A stretch of DNA of 46,420 nucleotides, the filler included, from Streblomastix strix (taxonomy: Eukaryota): assembly GCA_008636045.1 (NCBI GenBank). It is 2 parts of 2 records of this genome, joined end to end, with 100 filler letters (N's around TTAATTAATTAA, not from the genome) between each part and the next. Parts side by side here need not be neighbours in the genome. Positions count along the whole stretch, not along the records: positions 23,278 to 46,420 come from SNRW01000298.1; 1 more part is not named here. The stretch is one strand, 5' to 3'. Each line of letters begins with the position of its first letter. Position 1 is the first letter of the stretch. The translations under genes were made by a program, and so were the position numbers. Below are positions 24,776-39,700 of the stretch, piece after piece. The notes under the pieces are model-generated. The model saw nothing but the letters and a program-made list of their open reading frames with translations, was not told the DNA's origin and searched no databases.

Positions 24776-27700
24776 ATGAATCTTGCATTAATTGACAAAT
24801 TTCTTGAGGATGCAATCAACAAAGACGACATCAAAACAGTGAATTTTGTAGAACTTCTTGTATTTGCATTGGGAACAAAGCCGAAGAGCACACTTGAACG
24901 AATTAAAAAAGCGAGTTTCTAGTCGGAATCGGTATGTAGTCGTGTTTGGGCAGATGGAGATAGAGCATACAAATGCACAACATGCCAAATCGGTATTTTA
25001 TTTTATTTATTGATTATTACTAATAATTTATTAATTTATTTATTACTAATAATTTATTAATTTATTTATTCTTTCTGAATCTATTTAAACTTTACAGATT
25101 CTACCTCTGCATTGTGTGAAGATTGTTTTGAAATAGATTTACATAAGAATCATGATTATACTCTTGTATGAAATAATTACACTAATAATATTAATATTTA
25201 TTTATTTTAAATTTATTATTATAATTTATTTCTTTACTAACGTTATGTTTATTTATTTATTTAAATATTATATTTATTTATTTATTCATATTTAATATTT
25301 CAGATTGAAACAGGAGGCGGAACATGCGACTGTGGGAAAGCCTGTTCGTGGAATGTGAATAGTTTCTGCAGACACCATGCACGCAATGCAAAACAATGTG
25401 ATCCTCTTTCTTCACTAAAACCAGCATCATTGAAGAATTGATTAACTTAATTCATTAATCATATGATAAACTCACTCTCATAAGCTGCACTTGTTCAGTT
25501 GTTCTAATTGGGCAAACTGTGGGAGCTTCGTATATTGATGTATAGGTTGGAAAGAATATAGGAGAAATCAAAGGAAGAATAAAAGAATGTTTAGATTCTA
25601 ATTAAAGAAACAAAAGATGTTTTAAAAGAAAAAGAAGAAGGCAAAGAATCATAAGATAAAATGAAATAAAATTCAAAGAAAGATGAAGAAGAATAAACAG
25701 TTAAAAATGAAGATAATAATGCTTTTGTATGAATTATATTATTATTATTTTATTTATTATATTAATTGTATTTATCTATTTATTTAATATTAAATTATAT
25801 TATATTAGCAGCAAATTTTGGCTTTTTCTATAATTTCAAAGAATATCAACACATGCGAACAATTATCAGTTATCACAATGAAACCAGCTCAATTATAGAA
25901 GAAAATCTAATAAGCATCAGAAATACAATAACTTCTAAGTAATAAACAAATAATTAATAATAATTAATAATCTGAATATATTCTTCCAAATATCATAAAT
26001 TCTGATTTGGAAGAAGGATTAACATTAATGAATCGATTGAATGATAATCATTTTCAATTATTACTTTAGCATGGAAAAACAGTCACACAGAAGTTTATAA
26101 ATGCAATTATTCGTCGTAGAGCAATTATGCATTATATCTTAGTAGCACTTGAAGTCTTAGTTCGTGATGGAGGTGAAGGAATAAGAAGATTATTCACTAA
26201 TGCATTGCTTAGTGACATTCCATATGATTAATTACCTAATTCTCCTTCTAAATTAATTAGACTTGTTACTTGTGATGACAGAATTCTGAATAAAGCAACA
26301 ACTGAAAGTGTTGATTTTCTGATATCTGATGATGATCTTCCAAATACACTTCGTGTTGCTGCTGAAAGATTGCAGTAAATAAATATTGAGAAATAATAAT
26401 AATAATCTTCATCAAAAGCAATATTTAATCCATATACACTTTTATATGCATCTCCTTCATAATAATAATAATTCAATTAATCAGATTTAATATCAAATAA
26501 TCAACATTAACACTTACATTAACATAATCTGCACATTGAACATTACAATCCATCCAAACATCCAACATTCTATCATTCGCTCCAATCTAATTTAAGATTA
26601 TTATTAAGATTAATCAGAATAATTCCGGGTAAAGAATTAACTCAATTTTTAGTTCATCTGACATTTGATATGCAATTCTTGAAGTCTATGGCTGGAGCTT
26701 GGTTTGAAGCTTATTCTGCCATATATGGAGGATCAGCTGCATATTAAATTGAAAGGGATCGTGAAGTGACTAATGCAATTTGTCCTTAATTCAATGTTGG
26801 ATCTGATTAGATAAATTGTTAATAATAAATTATTAATACTAAATCATTGAATGAATAAAATAATATTAATAATATTAATAATAATCGAGATGATTATCTA
26901 ATGAGTGAATTATAAGTTGAAATGAGAGGTAAAACTAATAAAGACAAAGAAGAATTAACGATTGAAAAGTTCTTCTATTCTCGAGTGAATACACTTGATG
27001 CAGCACAGAAACTTAATCGTATTGATATAAATGGTGGAATTAAAGAAAGAATGAAGGAAATTTAGAAGAATAAAGAATAATAGAGAAAAATTAGGAATAT
27101 TAATTTATAATAATAAAGATCACAATAGATATAATAAAGATAATTATTGAATAATTAAAATTAGAAATAAAATTAAATTGAATTATAAATTAATAATAAT
27201 AATGAATAATAAGATGAAGATGAAGATTTAGATAATGAAGACGAATTAAATGATTATTCAAATATATTTGATTAAAATTATAACAATAATGATGATTAAC
27301 GAGATAATGAAGAAGATGAAGACGATGAAGAAAATGATGAATAACATTAATCAGGAGTTAAGAATCAAGATTTAGAAAGAGATATGATGGCACTGATTGA
27401 ATCGCCCCCTTGCAATGTTACTTCTATTCTTGGTGTTTAGTTATCTTTCTTAGGAATGGAATTTTTTGATGGAGAAAAATCGGGTACTGTTGCTGTTTAA
27501 ATTGAAAGTGAAATAAATGAATAATAATAAGAATAAAAAATTGAAATGGAGAATATGGGAGAATTAGATAAAGATTCATTTAAAGATGTAAAAGTTAGAG
27601 ATTGTAAATAAAATCAAGAAAAAGAAGAGAAAAACAAAGTTTCAATTAAAATTTCATCTTCATCTTCATCTTCATAAATTAATTAAAATAATTAAAATTA

Positions 27701-36700: not shown

Positions 36701-39700
36701 TCCTTGCCCAGTTTGTTGAAGATTTTCAAATACATTACTTCCTTTACTTGCTGGTGGAATTCCAGTGAAAAATTAAAGAAATTTGGAAGAAATTATAATG
36801 AATGAAATTATATCTGAAAATTCTTCTTAATAATCTTTTATTGAATAACATAACTCTGTTTCAAATTCTTCAAATATAAATATTGATGAAGGAAGTGATA
36901 CAACTGAAAGAAAATTATTTGTTAGACCATATGAATTATTTGATATTGAAAATAAAAAGAAAGAAACTAACAATATATAAATAAATAATCCTGAAATAAA
37001 TGAATAATCATTATAAAACAATTACATATTGACAAATGAAGCTTTTGAAATACTAAAAGATTTATTTAAACAAAGATATTCTGAACATCCTTCTTCTATA
37101 TATTAATATTAAAATTCTTCATAATAATCCTCTTAATAATAATCATCTATTCCTCTTTCTACATTTTCTTCATAATCGCTTTTTTCTTCGTTTTCATAAG
37201 AGATTGATTTATTTACAACATCTTTATTGAAACATTAATCAATTCTAAACAGAGATAATATTGATAAATTATATTAATAAGAAATCAAAGAAGAAAAATA
37301 AATAAAAAATTATTAAAAAAATATGGATTTATTAATAGCAAATGAAAAAGATTACATTAATAGAAGAACACCAACTATTAAATAAACAAATGAATTGATA
37401 TTAAAAGCCAGTAAAAATATTAAAGCAAATTAGAAATAGATATAAAAAGAAATATTAAAGTAAATAATAATAAAAAATTCATAAAAAAAGAAATAAAATT
37501 AATAATCATTGCCATCAACGTCTTTAATTTAATAACCATAATCATAATAAAAGGAAGATAATTGGGGATTTACTATTAATTCAGTAGAAAATATAAAAAA
37601 AGATTTAAACAATTCAACATATTTAAATCCAGAAGAAATTTCTCGTCGAAATGATATTCTTTAATAAACGTAAATAAAATTGGAATAATTTATTTAATAA
37701 TTAAAATAGAATACTGCAATTAATAGATCAGTAAGGCCATTATCAGTATTTTATAATTTTATTTCATATAATATATATAACTATATCTATAAATATTCTA
37801 TGGGTTAATATATTGGTGAGAATGAGAAGAAGAAGAAAGAGAAGTAGAATTTACTTATTGAAATATCAATTAAAATGGCTGAATTAATTAGTGAGAGAAA
37901 TTATAAGGTAATTAAGAATAAAATTTAAAAGAAATAATAGTAAAAGAATGAAGATGAATTTAATGGAATTTTATTTTAATCTCAAAATAATATTTTATGG
38001 AAAGACATAATTTAATTATTGAAGAAAGAAGAATTTTAACTTTAACCAATATAATAATAGGATAATAAAGATTATTAATCATAAAATGTGAATAAAGAAG
38101 AAATTAATTTTAATCATTCATAATCTTCTTAATAATTTGATTGTAATAAAAATGAATATATAAATTTATAAAGTAATAAAATTGATAAATTAAATAAAAT
38201 TAACTAAAATTTAGTCTTTAATCCGCTTCCATTATCATTTTAACCATTTCATCCACATAATAAATTATACATTTGTAGAAACGGGCAAAGTATTTTGAAC
38301 AATTATTTAGTTGTAGAAAAATATATTACCTATGAAAATAATGAATAGAATATGAATAATTATAATAATAATAGTCAATATTAAATAAATATATCGAATG
38401 CATAAAAAATTATGAGAGAATTTAGTTTATTTTCTGTCAATCTCAATGTTTTGATGAATAAAATAATAATAAAATAATATTAAAGGATTATTAATGATGA
38501 TAAATAAAAACAAAAGGATATTCAAAGTTCAATTGATGATAAATAAATTGATTAAGATAATAATGATTATATTGATGAATTTATAAATAAATTATTTGAT
38601 AATTATTATAATTAAATTAATAATACAATTTTCAATATTATATCCGATAATGAAACAAATAATAAAAATGATATAATTAATTCATAAAAAACTATTTCTT
38701 AGTAAATTAATTAAGATTTATTACCACCAAATCTATTTTCATTTCTTAAAGACATTTTAAATATTAATAATAATAGTTCAAATACTAGTAATATAGATAC
38801 AACTATTAATAATTAAGTTTAAAACATTAGGGGAAATAATAGTAATGATATTATGTAAAGTGATGAGTTTTTGTAATTTGATGAGAAAAATGATGCTTTA
38901 AATAAATTATATCTTTTCTAATTAATTTATTCTATATTATAATAATAAGATGGAAAAATCAAATAAATGATTGAAAGAAGATAAAAAGATTTAAAAGAAA
39001 AATATAAAGAAAAAGAAAATTCTTATTTACTGCTAGAAAAATAAAGATAAGATAAAGAAAAGATAATTAAATAATATATATCACGAGCTGATTATGAAAA
39101 AGAAAAATACTATGAATTGAAAAAGAAAAATTTAAATAATTTAGAAGATGGGATGTAAGAATTAGAGAGAATTAGAATAGAAATTTAAAATTTAGAAAAA
39201 ATAAAATTTGGAGAAAAATTTAAAATTGATAATTAAAATATAATTAAAGTTACAGATAATGAAAAATAAAATGAGAAAGATAAAGAAATAAGCAAAAAAT
39301 AAGAAATTTTAAAAAGAAAATAGAAAATAATTGATTAATTTAAAAACACAATGAATGAATTAACTTCAATTCTATCTCAAATATTACTTAATATAGGTAT
39401 TTCATTCTAAAACATTCAACAAACAAAATAGCACCTTTAAATTTCCAAATAAAAAAATAATAAACAAATTGAATATAACAACAACTTAATTTCAAACCAT
39501 TAATCATTCTTACCTTCACTATTATAATCAACTCCACTTCTTTAATCACTCATTCATACATTAGCAAGTATTGAATATGGATTCAGACCCTAACTTATTC
39601 CTGGAAGAGAATAATTTGAAATTATTGAATAAGAATTAGAGAAAGTTGATTAAGAAATAATTAAAGAGAAAGAGAAAAAAGAAATAAAGATTAAATAATC

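Follow-up and report, generated by a model that had tools for sequence, protein, structure and literature searches.

Four in-frame TGA codons in a UBR ligase gene of Streblomastix strix probably reflect CpG decay of a young duplicate

The stretch of DNA analysed here, referred to as the window, comprises 46,420 nucleotides of the Streblomastix strix genome (assembly GCA_008636045.1) and carries a UBR ligase gene with four TGA codons in its reading frame. We conclude that this copy of the gene is probably a young, pseudogenised duplicate that has decayed at CpG sites. S. strix is an oxymonad that reads TAA and TAG (TAR) as Gln (PMC13002328, PMC1501061), and the term TGA is absent from the main texts of both papers. 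Our gene models of this AT-rich eukaryotic sequence, with its short and very AT-rich introns, likewise have TAA and TAG as Gln and TGA as stop. The cluster of TGA codons in the UBR gene is real, but it is not proof of a new genetic code.

Results

Four TGA codons lie in an otherwise intact frame

The UBR gene consists of five exons and four GT-AG introns on the plus strand, and its spliced coding sequence (24776-42115) amounts to 5,671 codons. TGA stands in frame at 25439..25441, 29739..29741, 29883..29885 and 36717..36719, each in the sequence context quoted by an earlier note on this DNA. Intron 25727-25808 separates the first from the other three and puts it in another genomic frame. TGA occurs 4 times in the coding frame of the spliced sequence versus 109 and 335 times in the other two, showing that the frame is kept far beyond chance and, as the earlier note had reported, that no net frameshift is left once the four introns are spliced. 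P0002, a publicly deposited protein model that matches the window exactly, begins at the first Met after 25439, so the annotation treated this TGA as a stop.

The four TGA codons are disabling lesions in the genomic frame, and no credible intron removes them. Frame-keeping GT..AG pairs do occur around the four sites (26, 17, 22 and 17, respectively), however, these candidates have a GC content of 20-37% and no GTAT donor, while the real introns have a GTAT donor and 7-10% GC, and we rejected the candidates. Hidden introns at 25439 and 29883 are also ruled out by colinearity with a second copy of the gene, described below. The 87-nt GT..AG segment at 25398-25484, which the earlier note had put forward as a possible intron, falls with the rest, having 30% GC and a colinear alignment to the second-copy protein P0009 across it. 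Selenocysteine was set aside because none of the residues aligned to the TGA sites is Cys, although SECIS elements were not searched for. Predicted folds of the 80 nt 3′ of the four codons range from -0.7 to -10.7 kcal/mol, and no shared sequence or hairpin was found 3′ of the four sites.

The earlier note had asked for the sites to be compared with reads, and two of the four could be. A contig derived from run X1 spans 29371-30060 (690 letters, depth 19.4) with 0 differences from the window and includes the TGA codons at 29739 and 29883. Run X1 is a termite gut metagenome and possibly the window's own source, so the contig is not independent, and because the run is stored as contigs, rare variants are lost. 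Runs X2 and X3 contained next to none of the window sequence. These data bear on the possibility that the T letters come from whole-genome-amplification damage or from an assembly choice between alleles, with CGA in the living cell. Amplification damage most commonly takes the form of C>T, and the sole source of reads is this one termite-gut run; however, the 690-letter piece agrees at every position, the changes described below fall on both strands, and none of 24 CGA codons in neighbouring genes was affected, whereas damage would not be restricted to a single gene. We therefore consider an artefact of this kind improbable.

A second UBR copy has sense codons at the alignable sites

Public protein records and the metagenome contain a second, diverged copy of the UBR gene, and UBR is the one gene of the window with a known second copy. 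The largest record, P0001 (1,024 aa), aligns to 29220-31660 and is identical at 490 of 601 well-aligned columns, while P0003 and P0009 align to the UBR-box region, with P0009 identical at 142 of 152 residues. Run X1 contains a further sequence that shares about 90% identity with the window and agrees with P0001 at 22/22 differing codons (from the 30 of 40 difference rows shown that were used, the remainder lying outside P0001). Along the alignment, Gln stands in the second copy opposite 29 of the 35 TAA and both TAG columns of the window copy, so the UBR gene follows the S. strix code (NCBI table 6). All eight TGG columns are Trp, in line with the earlier observation that conserved Trp in this gene uses TGG. 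CGA remains in use (15 codons in UBR), as the earlier note had also stated.

The earlier note had suggested Arg as a possible residue behind the stops. This holds at 25439, where the second copy has Arg (P0003, P0009) and Blattamonas has Lys (P0004), and at 29883, which lies in a conserved block and is Arg in P0001. It does not hold at 29739, on the edge of a divergent linker, where P0001 has Thr. The codon at 36717 directly follows the last RING cysteine, in a column described earlier as an Arg/Lys position; human UBR1 has Lys and Cyanidium (P0007) has Arg, but human UBR2 has Glu, so the column is not invariant. A homologue search with the RING region gave no second-copy sequence for this site, a search for longer relatives of P0003 returned nothing, and scans of JGI metagenomes gave no match to P0001 and a single, unrelated bacterial-like match to P0009 (L001).

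Were every codon one step away from TGA an equally likely source of the stops, Arg at two of two sites (25439 and 29883) would have a probability of 0.012, which indicates that the link between TGA and Arg is real. Read from the alignment, this link fits CGA>TGA mutation and a UGA codon translated as Arg alike. It does rule out Trp as the residue behind TGA, and with it both UGA read as Trp and the A-to-I editing to UGG that the earlier note had listed. More generally, mRNA editing could account for stops at Arg sites in a frame that is otherwise intact, either by U-to-C changes restoring CGA or by A-to-I changes giving UGG. U-to-C editing occurs in fern and hornwort organelles, and A-to-I editing corrects premature stops in fungi. 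However, A-to-I editing would put Trp opposite the Arg residues of the second copy, and the TGG columns of this gene are Trp (8/8). U-to-C editing would leave the R>H, A>V and P>L changes described below unexplained unless they were edited too, and we know of no U-to-C editing of nuclear mRNA in any protist. Editing in either form is thus very unlikely.

As assembled from these records, the second copy comprises two near-identical short records (P0003 and P0009) plus P0001, which ends in diverged sequence. Three haplotypes of the UBR gene may be present, a situation compatible with allelic divergence, polyploidy or cryptic species.

TGA does not serve freely as an arginine codon in the window

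With the second copy pointing to Arg, we compared how TGA and CGA are used in the window with how the reassigned TAA is used beside CAA. In the neighbouring genes the ratio of TAA to CAA is 186:80 and that of TGA to CGA is 0:24; in the UBR gene the ratios are 499:85 and 4:15. Were TGA a usable Arg codon, its expected share would be 0.70 in the neighbours, where 0/24 was seen (p 3e-13), and 0.85 in UBR, where 4/19 was seen (p 6e-10). Because TAA exceeds CAA but TGA falls far under CGA, TGA cannot be in free use for Arg. The stops are also confined to UBR (4 TGA/15 CGA versus 0/24 in the neighbours, p 0.031, or 0.017 with two crude gene models added). The modelled exons of MCM3, SSR2, kinesin and the P-type ATPase have no internal TGA in 4,629 codons, in line with what the earlier note had seen in other genes. 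Full reassignment of UGA is excluded for the window, leaving a rare and poorly tolerated readthrough.

Such a readthrough would insert Arg at UGA infrequently or depending on context, in a long and probably weakly expressed UBR gene that tolerates four such codons. The earlier note, which proposed sense decoding of UGA and mentioned Arg, knew of no nuclear code with this meaning, however, a 2023 study claims it for seven ciliates, among them the Q/Q/R genera Uronychia, Sterkiella, Tetmemena, Stylonychia, Paraurostyla and Uroleptopsis (PMC10089648). The same source gives 987 internal TGA codons for Uronychia setigera, with five in one gene, and describes natural misreading of UGA as Trp, Arg or Cys (PMC10089648). 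We found no second literature source on UGA as arginine in Uronychia, and, judged by titles or abstract openings, none of the papers searched describes internal UGA for an oxymonad. The precedent (PMC10089648) lowers the novelty of a UGA = Arg reading and slightly raises its prior.

In these ciliates, too, TAA and TAG are Gln, TGA is terminal, and several internal TGA codons can fall at Arg columns of a single gene. Arg at two of the three alignable sites of the second copy, and a frame, splice sites and motifs intact across 5,671 codons, also speak for decoding. Against it, U. setigera has its 987 codons where we see four in one duplicated gene; the internal TGA codons are not spread over genes (0 TGA/24 CGA in the 4,629 neighbouring codons, for the window only); and, were TGA a usable Arg codon, AT pressure should raise it over CGA, which it does in neither gene set. 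TGA moreover ends the kinesin, ATPase and SSR2 genes, and the four sites lack a common 3′ sequence or hairpin. With four stops in series, readthrough of about 50% at each would be needed for 6% full-length protein, and 10% at each would give 0.01%. Finally, decoding leaves the CpG changes that do not create stops unexplained. We regard UGA read as Arg as unlikely. We likewise doubt the specific form in which S. strix would keep UGA as its only stop while reading it as Arg within genes, an early-stage Q/Q/R code outside ciliates in which very long, weakly expressed genes would be the first to tolerate CpG-driven CGA>TGA changes.

Condylostoma, Parduczia and Blastocrithidia use all three stops as sense codons (NCBI tables 27, 28 and 31), and UGA, read as Trp, is used in most genes. 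As in these organisms, one codon would have to serve S. strix as stop and as sense; unlike them, the window has TGG at its Trp columns and neighbouring genes without internal TGA. No tRNA gene was found in the window.

Amino-acid changes at CpG are one-sided

The possibility that deamination of methylated CpG produced the stops, which the earlier note had also raised, is the best supported of its options. Over 753 aligned columns, the window copy has 6 amino-acid-changing CpG transitions and the second copy has 0 out of 28 opportunities. The six are two of the TGA codons, R>H at 25373, R>Q at 29592, A>V at 29952 (to GTG, a rare codon) and P>L at 30750 (to CTG), and they include both C>T and G>A, that is, changes on both strands. 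On the window side 6/34 CpG positions are changed compared with 18/498 at other C/G positions (p 0.0025, or 0.037 without the stops). The rate of hits at CpG, 12-18%, is near the share of TGA among the UBR CGA and TGA codons (4 of 19). With a stricter alignment filter (517 columns) the count is 4/30 (p 0.015, or 0.20 without the stops), and a plain symmetry test without the stops is not significant (p 0.125); both of these results weaken the case for CpG decay. We consider this line of evidence, drawn from sequence comparison, suggestive and not strong.

Outgroups allow some of these changes to be placed. The UBR-box changes G>S and R>H arose on the side of the window copy, judging by the residues at these positions in Blattamonas (G and K) and Cyanidium (G and R), and of the 10 differences in this region about 4 are window-derived, 2 are second-copy-derived and 4 are ambiguous. 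A count of strong-to-weak asymmetry (42:18) was not used, being biased by the unknown codons of the second copy.

The ratio of observed to expected CpG (o/e) in coding DNA is 0.27-0.59 in all genes except SSR2. CpG is not depleted in the single-exon SSR2-like gene at 2843-3373 (1.14) or in the blocks at 2-4 kb and 22-26 kb (1.0-1.16), and the ratio of CG to GC is 66:107 near gene starts versus 178:467 further in (p 0.009). In composition this pattern looks like gene-body CpG methylation. No report of gene-body CpG methylation in oxymonads was found in the literature searched, and no paper on a DNMT in Streblomastix; a term search of the main text of the Monocercomonoides genome paper (PMC6759080) returned neither methylation nor CpG.

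A young duplicate, and what weighs against it

We propose that a duplication, or else allelic or cryptic-species divergence, gave rise to a second, diverged copy of the UBR gene, and that the window copy then came under relaxed selection, with the second copy presumably doing the job. C>T change at CpG, probably by deamination of methyl-cytosine, would outpace other changes and convert CGA to TGA. The Arg codons would have been CGA, although AGA>TGA is equally one step, and we infer, rather than observe, CpG methylation in Streblomastix. Stops would then arise before any frameshift, the time having been too short for indels. Translation would end at 25439, about 140 codons in. As S. strix reportedly has UPF1 (PMC1501061), a transcript stopped there would be a target of nonsense-mediated decay.

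Unprocessed duplicate pseudogenes in which CpG sites have given rise to CGA>TGA nonsense changes are a known kind of element. The UBR gene resembles them in being an intron-bearing copy beside a second copy, with stops at Arg and CpG missense changes on one branch. It differs in having no frameshift in 17 kb, and in that CpG methylation of oxymonads is not shown in the papers searched.

Several observations weigh against this account. The main tension is the absence of any net frameshift in 17 kb and 5,671 codons, and the argument of the earlier note that a decaying pseudogene should show frameshifts is a fair one. In a rough neutral model, in which all rates are assumed, the probability of no frameshift is 0.12 with CpG changing at 20x and 0.03 indels per substitution and 0.43 with CpG at 50x, but falls to 0.0009 at 20x with 0.1 indels per substitution; under this model a frameshift-free frame would be likely only if CpG changed 20-50x as fast as other C/G or if indels were rare. 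The start codon, the four introns and the zinc ligands are all intact, including the downstream zinc motifs to which the earlier note had drawn attention. CpG o/e at silent positions is 0.49 in UBR versus 0.22-0.23 in the ATPase, so UBR is not more eroded overall, and one 1.7-kb block retains 7 CGA codons, none of them hit. The second copy is seen as fragments, with sense codons at the three alignable sites and no residue for the fourth; it is seen to be intact at two sites, which does not cover its whole length, the P0001 model ends in diverged sequence, and it may itself be broken. Opposite 29739 the second copy has Thr, and opposite 36717 no residue of it is available. The missing frameshifts, the silent CpG, the unhit block and the fragmentary second copy are the reasons why we hold a young duplicate pseudogene to be probable and go no further.

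Gene structure and neighbouring genes

The UBR gene belongs with the UBR1/UBR2/PRT6 N-recognins, having a UBR box, a RING and PRT6_C in that order; zf-UBR was recognised, PRT6_C gave profile matches with E of 8e-13 and 2e-7, and the RING was aligned to human UBR1/2. All of its exons are on the plus strand. Exon 1 (24776..24992) holds the ATG and the first part of the UBR box (zf-UBR positions 1-19) and is colinear with P0009; exon 2 (25098..25165) continues the box, based on the gene model and the P0009 alignment; and exon 3 (25304..25726) contains the end of the box and the following helix, together with the first TGA and two changes derived in this copy, G>S (25361) and R>H (25373). After the AT-rich intron at 25727-25808, exon 4 (25809..42115) extends for 16.3 kb of low-complexity sequence with the UBR core, a winged helix, the RING and PRT6_C. 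Within its frame an (AAT)n tract (28111-28502), some 130 units long, encodes poly-Asn.

The last exon (42178..42313) contains the end of PRT6_C. TGA codons at 42311 and 42323 follow the last PRT6_C motif in frame, with a long open stretch beyond; these are probably the stop and a tandem stop, and a product ending at 42311 would be about 18 residues shorter than human UBR1 at the C-terminus. Alternatively, they could be a fifth and a sixth lesion.

The other modelled genes of the window are MCM3, TRAP-beta/SSR2-like, TFIIF-alpha-like, kinesin, a P-type ATPase and RPA1-like; the ATPase and UBR names have a Pfam basis, and the remaining names are our own reading of the translations. The P-type cation ATPase (12712-21960, minus strand) has about 3,020 codons, roughly 3x the usual length, and its last exon of 8.2 kb is packed with low-complexity inserts. 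The ATPase and UBR halves of the window meet at a scaffold joint, 23178-23277, where two 44-N runs precede a (TATT)n tract (23278-23402). Exact look-ups of 7 open reading frames derived from the window gave no match.

Discussion

A dead duplicate is an ordinary finding, although the CpG signature of this one is uncommonly clean. Were UGA instead read as Arg in the UBR gene, S. strix would have the first code of this kind outside ciliates, and the gene would illustrate how the last remaining stop codon starts turning into sense. As a probable pseudogene, the UBR copy is a useful warning for genomes in which TGA is the sole stop, since CpG decay of duplicates mimics a UGA = Arg code and may bear on code assignments that rest on low counts. 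The copy is also a hint that an oxymonad may methylate CpG.

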